A stretch of 64,000 bases of DNA from NCBI RefSeq assembly GCF_050920415.1, contig NZ_CP169309.1. One strand, written 5' to 3'. Position 1 is the first letter of the stretch, and the number at the start of each line of letters is the position of its first letter. Shown piece by piece: positions 3,284-55,257 of this stretch. A program made the translations under genes and the position numbers. The notes beneath the pieces were generated by a model. That model was not told where the DNA came from and did no database searches. It worked only from the letters and a program-made list of their open reading frames with translations. This DNA is from Escherichia coli. GTDB taxonomy: Bacteria > Pseudomonadota > Gammaproteobacteria > Enterobacterales > Enterobacteriaceae.

Positions 3284-3360
3284 GGCTACGTAGCTCAGTT
3301 GGTTAGAGCACATCACTCATAATGATGGGGTCACAGGTTCGAATCCCGTCGTAGCCACCA
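3284..3360 (+). tRNA. metT: tRNA-Met (elongator, CAU)
   Basis: 77-nt sequence ggctacgtagctcag...tcgtagccacca with encoded CCA; anticodon loop ctCATaa. Confidence 0.93.
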
Positions 3361-3368
3361 TCTTTTTT

Positions 3369-3453
3369 GCGGGAGTGGCGAAATTGGTAGACGCACCAGA
3401 TTTAGGTTCTGGCGCCGCAAGGTGTGCGAGTTCAAGTCTCGCCTCCCGCACCA
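3369..3453 (+). tRNA. leuW: tRNA-Leu (long variable arm)
   Basis: 85-nt sequence gcgggagtggcgaaattggtaga...gcctcccgcacca. Confidence 0.9.
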
Positions 3454-3476
3454 TTCACCAGAAAGCGTTGTACGGA

Positions 3477-3551
3477 TGGGGTATCGCCAAGCGGTAAGGC
3501 ACCGGTTTTTGATACCGGCATTCCCTGGTTCGAATCCAGGTACCCCAGCCA
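3477..3551 (+). tRNA. glnU: tRNA-Gln (UUG)
   Basis: 75-nt tggggtatcgccaagcggtaaggcaccggtttTTGataccgg...ccagcca. Confidence 0.9.
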
Positions 3552-3585
3552 TCTTCTTCGAGTAAGCGGTTCACCGCCCGGTTAT

Positions 3586-3660
3586 TGGGGTATCGCCAAG
3601 CGGTAAGGCACCGGTTTTTGATACCGGCATTCCCTGGTTCGAATCCAGGTACCCCAGCCA
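3586..3660 (+). tRNA. glnW: tRNA-Gln (UUG)
   Basis: Identical 75-nt copy of the preceding tRNA-Gln(UUG). Confidence 0.9.
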
Positions 3661-3675
3661 TCGAAGAAACAATCT

Positions 3676-3752
3676 GGCTACGTAGCTCAGTTGGTTAGAG
3701 CACATCACTCATAATGATGGGGTCACAGGTTCGAATCCCGTCGTAGCCACCA
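3676..3752 (+). tRNA. metU: tRNA-Met (elongator, CAU)
   Basis: Identical 77-nt copy of the first tRNA-Met. Confidence 0.93.
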
Positions 3753-3800
3753 AATTCTGAATGTGTCGAATGCGTTCGGCAAATTCACAAACCAATTTGT

Positions 3801-3875
3801 TGGGGTATCGCCAAGCGGTAAGGCACCGGATTCTGATTCCGGCATTCCGAGGTTCGAATCCTCGTACCCCAGCCA
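3801..3875 (+). tRNA. glnV: tRNA-Gln (CUG)
   Basis: 75-nt tggggtatcgccaagcggtaaggcaccggattCTGattccgg...ccagcca. Confidence 0.9.
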
Positions 3876-3912
3876 ATTTATTCAAGACGCTTACCTTGTA
3901 AGTGCACCCAGT

Positions 3913-3987
3913 TGGGGTATCGCCAAGCGGTAAGGCACCGGATTCTGATTCCGGCATTCCGAGGTTCGAATCCTCGTACCCCAGCCA
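3913..3987 (+). tRNA. glnX: tRNA-Gln (CUG)
   Basis: Identical copy of the preceding tRNA-Gln(CUG). Confidence 0.9.
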
Positions 3988-9535: not shown

Positions 9536-11074
9536 ATGGCTTTTGCCTCATTAATTGAACGCCAGCGCATTCGCCTGCTGCTGGCGTTATTATTCGGTGC
9601 CTGCGGAACGCTGGCCTTCTCTCCTTACGATGTCTGGCCTGCGGCGATTATTTCGCTGATGGGGCTTCAGGCGCTGACCTTTAACCGCCGTCCACTCCAG
9701 TCTGCCACTATTGGCTTTTGCTGGGGATTTGGCCTGTTTGGCAGCGGTATTAACTGGGTCTATGTCAGCATCGCGACCTTTGGCGGAATGCCTGGCCCGG
9801 TTAACATCTTCTTGGTGGTGCTGCTGGCGGCGTATTTGTCGCTGTATACCGGACTGTTTGCTGGCGTACTGTCGCGTCTGTGGCCGAAAACCACCTGGCT
9901 GCGCGTGGCGATTGCCGCCCCTGCTCTCTGGCAAGTGACCGAGTTTCTGCGCGGTTGGGTGCTGACTGGCTTCCCGTGGTTGCAGTTCGGCTATAGCCAG
10001 ATTGACGGTCCGTTAAAAGGACTGGCACCGATAATGGGCGTGGAAGCCATTAACTTCCTGCTGATGATGGTAAGCGGCCTGCTGGCACTGGCGTTGGTCA
10101 AACGCAACTGGCGTCCGCTGGTGGTGGCCGTCGTGCTGTTCGCCCTTCCCTTCCCGCTGCGTTACATCCAGTGGTTCACCCCGCAACCGGAGAAAACCAT
10201 TCAGGTTTCGATGGTTCAGGGCGACATTCCGCAATCGCTGAAGTGGGATGAAGGCCAGCTTCTCAATACGCTGAAGATTTACTACAACGCAACGGCACCG
10301 CTGATGGGCAAATCATCGCTGATTATCTGGCCGGAGTCGGCGATAACCGACCTGGAAATTAATCAGCAGCCGTTCCTCAAAGCACTGGACGGTGAGTTGC
10401 GTGATAAAGGTAGCTCGCTGGTCACCGGGATTGTCGACGCGCGTCTCAATAAGCAGAATCGCTACGATACCTACAACACCATCATCACGCTGGGTAAAGG
10501 TGCACCGTATAGCTACGAATCAGCCGATCGCTATAACAAAAACCATCTGGTACCGTTTGGCGAGTTTGTCCCGCTGGAGTCGATTCTGCGTCCGTTAGCA
10601 CCGTTCTTTGATCTGCCGATGTCGTCATTCAGCCGTGGACCATATATCCAACCACCGCTGTCGGTAAATGGTATTGAGCTTACTGCGGCTATTTGCTACG
10701 AGATCATTCTCGGCGAGCAAGTGCGCGATAACTTCCGCCCGGATACCGACTATCTGCTGACTATCTCCAACGATGCGTGGTTTGGTAAGTCTATTGGCCC
10801 ATGGCAGCACTTTCAGATGGCGCGAATGCGTGCGCTGGAGCTGGCGCGCCCGCTGCTGCGTAGCACCAACAACGGCATTACGGCGGTGATTGGCCCGCAG
10901 GGTGAGATTCAGGCGATGATCCCGCAATTCACCCGCGAAGTGTTAACCACTAATGTGACGCCGACCACCGGACTCACACCGTACGCACGTACCGGCAACT
11001 GGCCGCTGTGGGTGCTGACGGCACTGTTTGGTTTTGCCGCTGTGTTGATGAGTCTGCGTCAACGACGTAAATAA
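9536..11074 (+). CDS. lnt: Apolipoprotein N-acyltransferase
   Basis: 512 aa; N-terminal multi-TM region plus C-N hydrolase domain. Confidence 0.95.
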
Positions 11075-11470
11075 TCCCTTCTTATCGTGCCGGAATACAT
11101 CCCGTATTTCGGCACGCTCGCCGGATGTGGTATCAGTGCGTTATCCGGATGACAAAATTCCCCTATCCAACTTTGGCACATCTATTGCTTTGTTATACAA
11201 GGCAAAGCTTGAACCCGCGTCAGTACAACCCGGTTGCACCATAGCAATCCACCGGTAGCACCAAAAGAGTGCATTTTAAGAGTTTTGCTTCGGAATGGTG
11301 CGGCGCATCTCGCAAAAACAAACAATAAAACATCAATATCTTTACATTTAGCCAAACTAAATGTTACCTAACAAACACAACACTGCACAATAAAGTTGCA
11401 GATGATAACAACACAAACACTCACAACGGGTATCCATGCGTTCTTAACGCAGAAGATAAAGGAGTTGGAT

Positions 11471-12379
11471 ATGCAATTACGTAAACCTGCCACAGCAATC
11501 CTGGCCCTGGCGCTTTCCGCAGGCCTGGCACAGGCAGATGACGCCGCCCCGGCAGCGGGCAGTACGCTGGACAAAATCGCCAAAAACGGTGTGATTGTCG
11601 TCGGTCACCGTGAATCTTCAGTACCTTTCTCTTATTACGACAATCAGCAAAAAGTGGTGGGTTACTCGCAGGATTACTCCAACGCCATTGTTGAAGCAGT
11701 GAAAAAGAAACTCAACAAACCGGACTTGCAGGTGAAATTGATTCCGATCACCTCACAAAACCGTATTCCGCTGCTGCAAAACGGCACTTTCGATTTTGAA
11801 TGTGGTTCTACCACCAACAATGTCGAACGCCAAAAACAGGCGGCTTTCTCTGACACTATTTTCGTGGTCGGTACGCGCCTGCTGACCAAAAAAGGCGGCG
11901 ATATCAAAGATTTTGCCGACCTGAAAGACAAAGCCGTAGTCGTTACTTCCGGCACTACCTCTGAAGTTTTGCTCAACAAACTGAATGAAGAGCAAAAAAT
12001 GAATATGCGCATCATCAGCGCCAAAGATCACGGTGACTCTTTCCGCACCCTGGAAAGCGGTCGTGCCGTTGCCTTTATGATGGATGACGCTCTGTTAGCC
12101 GGTGAGCGAGCGAAAGCGAAGAAACCAGACAACTGGGAAATCGTCGGCAAGCCGCAGTCTCAGGAAGCCTACGGTTGCATGTTGCGTAAAGACGATCCGC
12201 AGTTCAAAAAGCTGATGGATGACACTATCGCTCAGGTGCAGACCTCCGGTGAAGCGGAAAAATGGTTTGATAAGTGGTTCAAAAATCCAATTCCGCCGAA
12301 AAACCTGAACATGAATTTCGAACTGTCGGACGAAATGAAAGCACTGTTCAAAGAACCGAATGACAAGGCACTGAACTAA
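11471..12379 (+). CDS. gltI: Glutamate/aspartate ABC transporter periplasmic binding protein
   Basis: 302 aa from MQLRKPATAILALALSAGLAQA signal peptide (track ORF starts further upstream); heads gltIJKL. Confidence 0.9.
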   Translation: MQLRKPATAILALALSAGLAQADDAAPAAGSTLDKIAKNGVIVVGHRESSVPFSYYDNQQKVVGYSQDYSNAIVEAVKKKLNKPDLQVKLIPITSQNRIPLLQNGTFDFECGSTTNNVERQKQAAFSDTIFVVGTRLLTKKGGDIKDFADLKDKAVVVTSGTTSEVLLNKLNEEQKMNMRIISAKDHGDSFRTLESGRAVAFMMDDALLAGERAKAKKPDNWEIVGKPQSQEAYGCMLRKDDPQFKKLMDDTIAQVQTSGEAEKWFDKWFKNPIPPKNLNMNFELSDEMKALFKEPNDKALN

Positions 12380-12536
12380 TTACAAGAACCAGGGGCGGAA
12401 ATTCCAGCCCTCTCGATTGTTACGTAGCACGGACAGACTATACGCCTGATGGTCGTTCCCCATCGGGCCTGAAAACCGCAATACGCTGGGTAACAATCTT
12501 CGAGGGTAGCAGTTAACGCTGCTACCCTCTTTTTTC
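12375..12536 (+). ncRNA. sroC: SroC-type sRNA derived from the gltI 3' end / gltI-gltJ spacer
   Basis: Assigned by position: K-12 SroC is processed from the gltI-gltJ spacer and ends at this terminator; exact 5' end not determinable from sequence. Confidence 0.45.
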
Positions 12537-12538
12537 TG
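12502..12538 (+). terminator. Intrinsic terminator/attenuator between gltI and gltJ
   Basis: gagggtagcagttaacgctgctaccctc hairpin followed by ttttttct. Confidence 0.75.
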
Positions 12539-12548
12539 GAGTAGATTT

Positions 12549-13289
12549 ATGTCTATAGACTGGAACTGGGGTATTTTTTTACAACAAGCCCCGTTCGGCA
12601 ACACCACCTATCTTGGTTGGATCTGGAGTGGTTTTCAGGTGACGATTGCTTTGTCGATCTGCGCCTGGATTATCGCTTTCCTCGTCGGTTCATTTTTCGG
12701 CATTTTACGTACCGTTCCAAACCGTTTTCTCTCCGGTCTGGGTACGTTGTATGTCGAACTGTTCCGCAACGTGCCGTTGATTGTGCAATTCTTTACCTGG
12801 TATCTGGTTATCCCTGAACTGTTGCCGGAAAAAATCGGCATGTGGTTTAAGGCAGAACTAGACCCCAATATTCAGTTTTTCCTCTCCTCCATGCTCTGTC
12901 TGGGACTGTTTACTGCAGCTCGTGTTTGCGAACAAGTACGCGCCGCGATTCAGTCGTTGCCGCGTGGGCAAAAGAATGCCGCGCTGGCAATGGGTCTGAC
13001 GCTACCGCAGGCTTACCGCTACGTACTGTTGCCTAACGCTTATCGCGTTATCGTCCCGCCAATGACCTCTGAGATGATGAACCTGGTGAAAAACTCCGCC
13101 ATCGCCTCGACCATCGGTCTGGTGGATATGGCGGCGCAGGCCGGTAAATTGCTCGACTACTCGGCCCACGCCTGGGAGTCATTTACCGCCATTACGCTGG
13201 CGTATGTGTTGATTAACGCTTTTATCATGCTGGTGATGACGCTGGTTGAACGTAAAGTTCGCCTGCCCGGCAACATGGGGGGCAAATAA
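12549..13289 (+). CDS. gltJ: Glutamate/aspartate ABC transporter permease
   Basis: 246-aa polytopic membrane protein with ABC permease EAA-like loop. Confidence 0.93.
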
Positions 13290-13962
13290 TGTACGAGTTT
13301 GACTGGAGTTCCATTGTTCCTTCCCTGCCATATCTGCTCGACGGGCTGGTGATCACCCTGAAAATCACCATCACGGCGGTGGTCATTGGTATTTTGTGGG
13401 GTACGATGCTGGCAGTGATGCGCTTGTCCAGCTTTGCGCCGATTGCCTGGTTTGCCAAAGCCTACGTTAACGTGTTCCGTTCGATCCCGTTAGTCATGGT
13501 TTTGCTATGGTTTTACCTGATTGTGCCGGGATTTCTGCAAAACGTGCTGGGATTATCGCCAAAAAATGATATCCGTTTAATTTCGGCGATGGTGGCGTTT
13601 TCGATGTTTGAAGCGGCCTACTATTCAGAGATTATCCGTGCCGGTATTCAAAGTATTTCCCGTGGGCAGTCGAGCGCCGCGCTGGCGTTGGGGATGACTC
13701 ACTGGCAGTCGATGAAACTGATTATTCTGCCGCAGGCGTTCCGCGCGATGGTGCCGCTGCTGCTCACTCAGGGCATCGTACTTTTCCAGGATACCTCGCT
13801 GGTGTATGTGTTATCTCTGGCCGATTTCTTCCGTACCGCCTCAACCATTGGTGAGCGTGATGGTACACAGGTCGAAATGATTCTGTTTGCCGGGTTTGTT
13901 TATTTCGTTATTAGCCTTAGCGCATCGTTGTTGGTCAGCTACTTGAAAAGAAGGACAGCATA

Positions 13963-13963
<1 letters not shown>
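13289..13963 (+). CDS. gltK: Glutamate/aspartate ABC transporter permease
   Basis: 224 aa, paralogous to gltJ; start overlaps the gltJ stop. Confidence 0.93.
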
Positions 13964-14688
<725 letters not shown>

Positions 14689-14805
14689 TCACTCTGGCGC
14701 GCATACCCAAGTGCGCGCCATCTCACGCTTTATCGTTTCGCTCCTCGTATCTGTTACATCCTGGCGGTACCCTTGTCGCAAAGAAGCACACAACAAGGAG
14801 CAACA

Positions 14806-15741
14806 ATGGCACTGCCAATTCTGTTAGATTGCGACCCAGGTCATGACGACGCTATCGCAATAGTTCTTGCCCTCGCCTCACCAGAGCTTGATGTCAAAGC
14901 AATTACGTCTTCCTCCGGAAACCAGACTCCAGAAAAAACCTTACGCAATGTTCTGCGTATGCTGACCTTGCTCAATCGCACCGATATTCCGGTAGCAGGC
15001 GGCGCGGTAAAACCGTTAATGCGTGAGTTGATTATCGCGGACAATGTGCACGGCGAAAGCGGTCTCGACGGCCCGGCATTACCGGAACCGACGTTCGCAC
15101 CGCAAAACTGTACGGCGGTGGAGCTGATGGCGAAAACGCTGCGTGAAAGTGCGGAACCTGTCACGATTGTTTCTACCGGGCCGCAAACTAACGTTGCCTT
15201 GCTGCTCAATAGCCATCCGGAACTGCATAGCAAAATCGCCCGTATCGTGATTATGGGCGGCGCAATGGGGCTTGGTAACTGGACGCCAGCCGCCGAGTTT
15301 AATATTTATGTTGACCCGGAAGCGGCAGAAATTGTTTTCCAGTCAGGGATCCCGGTGGTGATGGCCGGTCTGGATGTTACTCATAAAGCGCAAATCCACG
15401 TTGAAGACACCGAGTGTTTCCGCGCGATTGGCAACCCTGTTTCAACCATTGTTGCCGAACTGCTGGATTTCTTCCTCGAATATCATAAAGACGAAAAATG
15501 GGGCTTTGTTGGCGCACCGCTGCATGACCCATGCACCATCGCCTGGCTGTTAAAACCGGAGTTGTTTACCACTGTTGAGCGCTGGGTTGGCGTGGAAACA
15601 CAGGGGAAATATACTCAGGGCATGACGGTTGTTGATTATTATTATCTGACCGGCAATAAACCGAATGCTACTGTAATGGTCGATGTTGATCGTCAGGGCT
15701 TTGTTGATTTACTGGCTGATCGTCTGAAATTTTACGCTTAA
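14806..15741 (+). CDS. rihA: Pyrimidine-specific ribonucleoside hydrolase
   Basis: 311 aa from [15 protein letters not shown] (nucleoside hydrolase DxDxxxDD motif). Confidence 0.93.
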
Positions 15742-41673: not shown

Positions 41674-41706
41674 CAAAAAAAACCCGCTGATTAAGCGGGT
41701 TTTGAA
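41674..41706. terminator. Bidirectional intrinsic terminator between convergent crcB and cspE
   Basis: aaaaaaaacccgctgattaagcgggttttg. Confidence 0.75.
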
Positions 41707-41722
41707 TTCTTGCTGACGTATC

Positions 41723-41932
41723 TTACAGAGCGATTACGTTTGCAGCAGAAGGGCCTTTGGCACCGTTAGTGATTTCGAACTCTACGCGCTGACCTTCAGC
41801 AAGAGTTTTAAAACCATTAGTCTGGATTGCAGAGAAGTGTACGAACACGTCTTTGCTGCCGTCTTCCGGAGTAATGAAACCGAATCCTTTGGACTCATTA
41901 AACCACTTAACGTTACCTTTAATCTTAGACAT
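41723..41932 (-). CDS. cspE: Cold-shock-domain protein CspE
   Basis: 69 aa from [20 protein letters not shown] (RNP1 motif); the track ORF is an upstream in-frame extension. Confidence 0.93.
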
Positions 41933-42106
41933 CAAAATTACCTTTACATGAAAAATAGACACAAATGCTGTGTCGGTTACCAGTACACCAATTGTGGTAC
42001 GCTTTGTCCAGTGCAACTTTACTAAAAAGTGATAAAAGTCGCGTTATTTTTGATGTTAATTATTTTACTCATTGATTTTAAAGAAGTTACTAAAATTTCA
42101 TTTGTC

Positions 42107-55028: not shown

Positions 55029-55257
55029 TCCTCTGATTTACAAAAGACGCTAATTCGTCTTCCATAAACTATGACGATTAAGATTTATACATAATGCGCT
55101 GCATTGAGGAATTCCCTGAATGTGACGCAAATCACTTCAAAGAGTGAGCAACAGTCAGTATCATCATGTGAGTTAAACCCTCGCCGCCTGACGGTGAGGG
55201 TTTTCTTTTGGGTATGTTTATCTGCGACACTCGCAGTACCGACGACATGGAGTAAAA

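Follow-up and report, generated by a model that had tools for sequence, protein, structure and literature searches.

Organization of the gltI-gltJ region

Throughout this study, the window refers to the whole stretch of 64,000 nucleotides of Escherichia coli DNA that was analysed. The genes gltI, gltJ, gltK and gltL lie in this order between lnt and rihA, and their positions, together with those of all features described below, are listed in Table 1. According to the ORF coordinates, the spacer between gltI and gltJ spans 12380-12548 and is 169 bp in length, 1 bp shorter than the 170 bp given in the initial annotation. The Shine-Dalgarno sequence of gltJ (GGAG, 12539-12542) is located directly 3' of a T-run, the end of which lies 13 nt before the gltJ ATG.

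The lnt-gltI intergenic region (11075-11470) is 396 bp in length, whereas E. coli MG1655 carries IS5D (insH3) approximately 100 bp upstream of gltI. The window thus derives from an E. coli without that insertion, even though its sroC sequence is identical (see below). Elsewhere in the window, seven tRNA genes were found at 3284-3987 on the plus strand [Met(CAT), Leu(TAG), two Gln(TTG), Met(CAT) and two Gln(CTG)], and the enterobacterial rnk leader (RF01771) gave a full-length match of 124.9 bits at 55104-55212 and has a terminator-like hairpin of its own. A match to the cspA thermoregulator family (RF01766) was located at 41675-42088 on the minus strand (123.8 bits against a gathering score of 78). 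Based on the poor alignment of its 5' half to RF01766, this region probably comprises leader and coding sequence of a paralogue of cspA, not cspA itself.

Table 1. Positions of genes and RNA elements around the gltI-gltJ spacer (nt, position in SroC unless GcvB is named; MFE, minimum free energy fold)
Feature	Position	Strand	Description and basis
lnt	9536-11074	+	Gene before gltI; rihA comes after gltL
GcvB target in gltI 5' UTR	11397-11428	+	C/A-rich; pairs with the GU-rich R1 seed of GcvB (GcvB nt 63-90)
gltI	11471-12379	+	Periplasmic glutamate/aspartate-binding protein; NCBIfam NF008063, 667 bits (cut-off 375); RefSeq annotation
SroC sRNA, 163 nt	12375-12537	+	Rfam RF00369 match; identity with MG1655 sroC b4763; fold
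SL1, 5' stem-loop	12392-12411	+	nt 18-37; MFE; 84.9% of cells paired in 54 orthologues; both-side changes at 2/8 pairs
Long closing helix	12415-12498	+	nt 41-49 with 116-124, plus inner helices; encloses BS1 and SL2; MFE
BS1	12431-12438	+	nt 57-64, GGACAGAC; pairs with GcvB nt 156-163, GUCUGUCC, R3/SL4 region
SL2 hairpin	12444-12468	+	nt 70-78 with 86-94; 7-nt loop shows BS2; MFE
BS2	12453-12459	+	nt 79-85, UCGUUCC; pairs with GcvB nt 13-19, GGAACGA, SL1
Rho-independent terminator	12502-12535	+	Shared 3' end of short gltI mRNA and SroC
gltJ	12549-13289	+	Amino-acid ABC permease family; RefSeq name
gltK	13289-13963	+	Permease; NCBIfam GltK equivalog, 479 bits; RefSeq name
gltL	13963-14688	+	ATPase family; RefSeq name

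Identification of sroC in the spacer

The initial annotation had read the spacer as the locus of the small RNA SroC and had proposed an Rfam/Infernal scan as a check. When the whole window was searched against Rfam 15, the sroC family (RF00369) was matched over its full length (model positions 1-163 of 163) with 174.8 bits (gathering score, 45; E = 7.4e-37). The MG1655 annotation places the ncRNA gene sroC (b4763) at 686681-686843(-), where it lies between gltJ and gltI and shares 5 nt with gltI, and alignment across this gene and its flanks showed identity at 221/221 bases. This identity indicates that the locus is the reference SroC gene itself rather than a mere relative, and the reading of the spacer as SroC was borne out. 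As to its extent, the locus was correctly placed, but a start at 12380 clips 5 nt from the RNA, which begins at 12375 and takes in the final 5 nt of gltI with its TAA stop codon. This 5' end was taken from the annotation and from Rfam, and the surrounding sequence (CUGA followed by ACUAAUU) is no textbook RNase E site.

Of 5426 complete E. coli genomes, 5421 carry the segment 12300-12620 as a single copy, with at least 99% identity in 5367.

Properties of the terminator and the RNA 3' end

As described in the initial annotation, the spacer ends in a hairpin followed by a T-run. The hairpin GAGGGUAGCAGU-UAAC-GCUGCUACCCUC consists of a perfect stem of 12 pairs (12502-12513 with 12518-12529; 11 Watson-Crick pairs including seven G-C, and one closing U-G) and the loop UAAC, and is followed by U6 at 12530-12535. 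A U6 tail of this kind, located behind a terminator hairpin, typically serves as the module for Hfq binding. The folding energy of the hairpin was -22.7 kcal/mol, compared with -8.0 +/- 2.4 for 200 dinucleotide shuffles, none of which was as good (z = -6.1), and the pair probabilities of the stem were 0.89-1.0. Among the terminator-like sites in 10900-15000, this site ranked best.

A transcript 3' end had been predicted at approximately 12536. Term-seq of MG1655, the sequence of which is identical here, located two 3' ends, 686683(-) and 686689(-), and assigned both to the class internal to sroC (Adams et al. 2021; PMC7815308, supplementary files 1 and 3). After conversion, these ends fall on the final U of the tract (window position 12535) and on the final base of the stem (12529), in agreement with the prediction. 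The 686683(-) end, which precedes the gltJ start codon by 14 nt, was represented by approximately 42,900 reads in LB at OD 0.4; its Rho score was 1.10, which denotes no Rho region, and its intrinsic-terminator score was 3.71 against a threshold of 3.0 (PMC7815308). The steady-state DirectRNA-seq coverage at the site was 102 upstream and 82 downstream (PMC7815308). Together, the scores and the coverage fit an intrinsic terminator that is passed by a good share of transcripts.

If gltJKL is to be made from the single promoter, the terminator must be leaky, and it was named 'a leaky Rho-independent terminator' by Miyakoshi et al. (PMC4474525). The term 'strong', used for this terminator in the initial annotation, therefore holds for the energy of the hairpin, but not for its function. 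The accompanying proposal that the terminator allows gltI to be expressed apart from the permease genes was stated likewise by Miyakoshi et al. 2015 (PMC4474525). A scan of the plus strand in 10900-15000, including the gap between the terminator and gltJ, gave no sigma-70-like site, but the same scan also missed the known gltI promoter and is hence uninformative as to a promoter of sroC itself.

Conservation of SroC among Enterobacteriaceae

Orthologous loci were collected by scanning one genome per species for the pattern TGGTCGTTCCCCA-N8-GAA. Since the pattern specifies only 16 bases, chance matches were expected; approximately half of the 120 loci detected were such matches in unrelated phyla, and these were removed by blastn against the whole of SroC. 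A total of 54 loci from approximately 15 genera were kept, while a Cedecea locus (L070) that passed the filter was too short to align. The 54 loci carried the labels Escherichia, Salmonella, Citrobacter, Klebsiella, Raoultella, Enterobacter, Kluyvera, Kosakonia, Phytobacter, Silvania, Pluralibacter, Mangrovibacter, Buttiauxella, Yokenella and other Enterobacteriaceae, in addition to one Chryseobacterium. The Rfam sroC threshold was passed by 15/15 orthologous loci, with scores from 188 bits (Salmonella arizonae) down to 48 bits (Buttiauxella).

In the alignment, BS1 together with the next U (GGACAGACU) was invariant in 54/54 orthologues, and BS1 was not demanded by the search pattern. In contrast, the BS2 loop is part of the pattern, and its invariance in the alignment is therefore imposed. 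The core of the terminator and the U-tract were nearly invariant.

Several loci departed from the common arrangement (locus identifiers are given in brackets). In Yokenella (L108), Enterobacteriaceae bacterium RIT691 (L033) and the contig labelled Chryseobacterium sp. 18061 (L102), the 5' part of SroC, BS1 and SL2 were kept, but the terminator CUUCGAGGGUAGC...U8 was replaced by unrelated sequence (Rfam scores of 64-68 bits). These loci may represent truncated or re-terminated variants, akin to the non-functional form of Yersinia, for which loss of BS2 has been reported (PMC4474525). The contig labelled Chryseobacterium carries an enterobacterial-type sroC at 1139-1433 (65.1 bits) with flanks like those of RIT691, and is probably a contamination or a mislabelled assembly. 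An extra insertion of approximately 30 nt, partly self-complementary, was observed between SL2 and the 3' strand of the closing helix (A2 alignment columns 121-155) in Pluralibacter UBA7423, Buttiauxella, Enterobacteriaceae RIT693 and two Enterobacter spp. (L042, L122, L077, L111 and L028). In four further loci, from some Citrobacter and Phytobacter (L091, L059, L104 and L109; A2 columns 1-30), the 3' end of gltI differs (...GAAGTGTAA/TAG) and the SroC 5' leader ACUAAUUAAAA is absent, so that the processing site must differ there.

Secondary structure of SroC

The predicted fold of the 163-nt SroC had a minimum free energy of -66.3 kcal/mol, compared with -40.5 +/- 4.0 for shuffled sequences (z = -6.5), and consists of SL1, a long closing helix, SL2 and the terminator. 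When the E. coli fold was placed on the alignment of 54 orthologues, 88.8% of the cells were paired, compared with 39-51% when the pairing partners were slid by 1-3 columns. The fraction of paired cells was 96.9% for SL2 and 97.5% for the terminator. In SL2, compensatory changes were detected across genera at five of nine pairs, and in the closing helix (helices 2 and 3 of the alignment, 84-95% paired) at 9 of 13 pairs. Altogether, changes on both sides of a pair were found in 169 cells, against 59 +/- 6 in shuffles, and none of the 500 shuffles reached as high a count; the structure was derived from the window sequence, itself one of those aligned, which gives a somewhat favourable bias, but the margin is large.

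Pairing of SroC with GcvB and of GcvB with the gltI leader

The GcvB sequence of MG1655 was compared with SroC by searches for exact complements and by the calculation of local duplexes. Full-length RNAduplex of SroC against GcvB was dropped, as its all-against-all duplexes (-70 to -78 kcal/mol) carried no meaning. BS1 is a perfect 8-nt complement of GcvB (duplex of -15.3 kcal/mol) and BS2 a perfect 7-nt complement. BS2 coincides exactly with the apical loop of SL2 and had an unpaired probability of 0.98-1.00, while BS1 lies in a partly open internal-loop region, in agreement with published probing (PMC4474525). The gap of 14 nt between the two sites also matches the published description, in which the two sites, each of 7-8 nt, are separated by 14 nt in SroC but by a long distance in GcvB (PMC4474525). 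By shuffling, six 7-mers of SroC-GcvB complementarity were observed against 1.9 expected (p ~0.04), and two 8-mers against 0.49 (p ~0.11). As complementarity by itself was only weakly above chance, it is no independent proof of function, the weight of which lies on published genetics, E. coli data and conservation. A third 8-nt complement was present at 12475-12482 (SroC nt 101-108, ACCGCAAU, with GcvB 189-196 in the GcvB terminator stem); this match is probably fortuitous, being located in paired regions of both RNAs, with approximately 0.5 such matches expected by chance.

The genetic evidence comes from Salmonella, in which the compensatory mutants SroC C63G/GcvB G160C and C87G/G14C were constructed, and the double compensatory mutations restored regulation (PMC4474525). 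Since the Salmonella numbering equals that of E. coli plus three, the mutated SroC residues correspond to E. coli C60 and C84. Deletion of sroC extended GcvB's half-life from 1.7 to >15 min, an effect that needs Hfq and RNase E, and the E. coli homologues were functional (PMC4474525). In E. coli, SroC shortens the GcvB half-life from >16 to 3.8 min, while SroC itself is stable for >16 min (PMC10250213). In addition, RIL-seq with Hfq in stationary-phase E. coli yielded 67,138 GcvB-SroC chimeras, approximately 70% of the GcvB reads (PMC9299463).

The parental mRNA of SroC is also a GcvB target. The duplex between the gltI leader site and GcvB had an energy of -31.2 kcal/mol, beating 400/400 random 171-nt windows of the same sequence, and this 'CA' site in the leader is the known GcvB target on the gltI mRNA (PMC4474525).

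Proposed mechanism of SroC production and action

These observations indicate that the spacer almost certainly encodes SroC, an sRNA from the 3' UTR of gltI that triggers the decay of GcvB, and no point in the analysis contradicts this explanation. The identity, the coordinates, the terminator, the fold with its covariation, both pairing sites with their accessibility and the leader site were computed here, while the literature supplies RNase E processing, Hfq dependence, the destabilization of GcvB, the positions of the 3' ends and the leaky behaviour of the terminator.

In the proposed mechanism, transcription would start from a single gltIJKL promoter, and a fraction of the polymerases would halt at the intrinsic terminator to give a monocistronic gltI mRNA. 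The remaining polymerases would pass the terminator, and gltJKL would be made solely by this read-through; partial termination before gltJKL would thus let the binding protein outnumber the membrane components. The short mRNA would undergo decay that is driven by RNase E, depends on the 5' end and stops at approximately 12375, leaving SroC as a tightly folded, very stable and Hfq-dependent product with a 5' monophosphate. In Salmonella, the cutting of SroC from gltI mRNA by RNase E has been shown in vivo and in vitro to depend on the 5' monophosphate and on Hfq (PMC4474525), and the same processing has been assumed for E. coli (PMC10250213).

SroC would then pair with GcvB, through BS1 with nt 156-163 and through BS2 with nt 13-19, and this pairing would lead to the cleavage of GcvB by RNase E without consumption of SroC. 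The loss of GcvB is expected to de-repress a large regulon of amino-acid transport and metabolism, including gltI itself via the leader site at 11397-11428. De-repression of gltI through SroC would constitute a feed-forward loop.

Alternative interpretations of the spacer

The conserved fold could also act in cis as an attenuator or riboswitch, in which an antiterminator or a bound factor tunes the read-through into gltJKL, and hence the release of SroC. Regulated termination has been raised as an open possibility (PMC4474525), and both the CUUCGAGGGUAGC sequence and the CCCUCUCGAUUG block are nearly invariant. Furthermore, the pairing CUCGA:UCGAG prolongs the closing helix of the nascent RNA into the base of the terminator 5' arm, as in the Rfam consensus. 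This pairing, however, gains only approximately 2.5 kcal/mol (-46.1 against -43.6), while formation of the terminator adds approximately 20 (to -66.3). Antiterminators were sought by blocking the 3' arm of the terminator, by folding nascent transcripts of 126-142 nt, by masking nt 1-25, and by forcing the pairings 34-38:127-131 or the Rfam-like 38-42:125-129. No alternative fold tried competed with the terminator: it formed with nt 1-25 (the SL1 region) masked, and the forced antiterminator-like fold was worse by 15 kcal/mol, in line with the high pair probabilities of the terminator stem. In the Rfam scan, no riboswitch or leader family other than sroC matched the spacer. Based on these results, we consider cis-acting control improbable as an explanation of the spacer. 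A simple RNA-only antiterminator is excluded as far as the folding tests can predict, and a mechanism that depends on a protein or on Hfq may be possible.

One lineage-specific feature bears on the terminator. Within the alignment of Enterobacteriaceae, E. coli, E. albertii and E. whittamii share a 7-nt insertion (window 12509-12517, with ambiguous exact boundaries), which turns an ancestral GCU loop into stem and gives the 12-bp, -22.7 kcal/mol hairpin with U6. In contrast, Salmonella, Citrobacter, Klebsiella, Enterobacter and most other genera have a 9-bp stem of -13.7 kcal/mol with U8 (L079, L015, L098 and L023 compared). Kluyvera carries independent insertions of 6-10 nt at the same point, by which the stem is likewise lengthened (-20 to -24 kcal/mol). 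We note as a speculation, itself unlikely, that the near-invariant positions that make no contact with GcvB (CCCUCUCGAUUG, together with AAUCUUCGAGGGUAGC at the terminator base) might be a platform for a factor that tunes termination and thereby sets the ratio of SroC to gltJKL, and that reinforcement of the stem in Escherichia might have reset this ratio relative to Salmonella, Klebsiella and Enterobacter.

A second interpretation takes the spacer as a mere intra-operon terminator or 3' stabilizer that sets the ratio of GltI to GltJKL, with the leftover RNA being functionless. A real terminator does lie between the gene for the binding protein and those for the permease, with coverage going on downstream, and its role in differential expression is accepted (PMC4474525). 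The terminator, however, needs only approximately 35 nt, whereas conservation, structure and covariation across genera extend over the other 125 nt, with BS1 invariant. In addition, GcvB is destabilized by base pairing with SroC (PMC4474525, PMC10250213), and the duplex has been captured in E. coli by RIL-seq (PMC9299463). Termination thus holds true alongside the function of SroC and does not compete with it; as the complete explanation it is very improbable, being refuted by the compensatory mutations (PMC4474525).

It is still less credible that the spacer is protein-coding, through a 75-codon antisense ORF (12380-12607, minus strand) or a short sense ORF. The ORF list does contain a GTG-started minus-strand ORF of 75 aa that spans the whole spacer, but its product matched no Pfam family even at E = 1, and no CDS is annotated in the spacer in RefSeq. 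Moreover, the indels among orthologues are not multiples of three (7 nt in Escherichia and 6-10 nt in Kluyvera, among others), and the substitutions follow RNA pairing rather than codons. Finally, intercistronic hairpins that follow binding-protein genes frequently belong to REP elements, and REP/BIME-type repetitive extragenic elements separate genes in other ABC-transporter operons. Such an element has practically no likelihood here, since the sequence occupies a median of one place per genome rather than hundreds, which excludes a REP element, and a 3' end has been mapped to the U-tract behind the hairpin, within a full-length match to the sroC model.

Comparison of SroC with known systems

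The interpretation as SroC involves nothing new: the RNA was found in 2003, its mechanism was described in 2015, and both the reference genome annotation and Rfam include it. The value that is left is that of a validated positive control, in which a 3'-UTR-derived sRNA was recognized from raw sequence with its 3' end within 1 nt of that mapped by Term-seq, in addition to the minor lineage-specific variation of the terminator.

Compared with SroC of E. coli K-12 (b4763, RF00369), no difference was detected in the sequence, the position between gltI and gltJ, the length of 163 nt, the terminator, BS1, BS2 or the 14-nt spacing. Compared with Salmonella SroC (Miyakoshi, Chao and Vogel 2015), the Escherichia copy differs in the 7-nt insertion, the stem of 12 instead of 9 bp and the U-tract of U6 instead of U8. 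SroC resembles CpxQ (from cpxP), SdhX (from sdhCDAB-sucABCD), NarS, MalH and OppZ in being an RNase E-processed mRNA 3' end that shares the intrinsic terminator of the mRNA, carries a 5' monophosphate and is bound by Hfq. Unlike these five sRNAs, SroC ends at a leaky terminator internal to an operon rather than at the end of a transcription unit, and its main target is another sRNA, for which it serves as a decay-triggering sponge, whereas the targets of the others are mRNAs. In this respect, the SroC-GcvB pair is similar to that of the chbBC spacer and ChiX, in which an RNA derived from an mRNA likewise binds an Hfq-dependent sRNA by pairing and reduces its abundance, both being cases of mRNA cross-talk within one regulon. 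The two systems differ in their mode of decay: SroC leads to cleavage of GcvB by RNase E at two distant sites and is not consumed, while the decay of ChiX on chbBC has been described to involve its terminator region and PNPase (PMC4474525).
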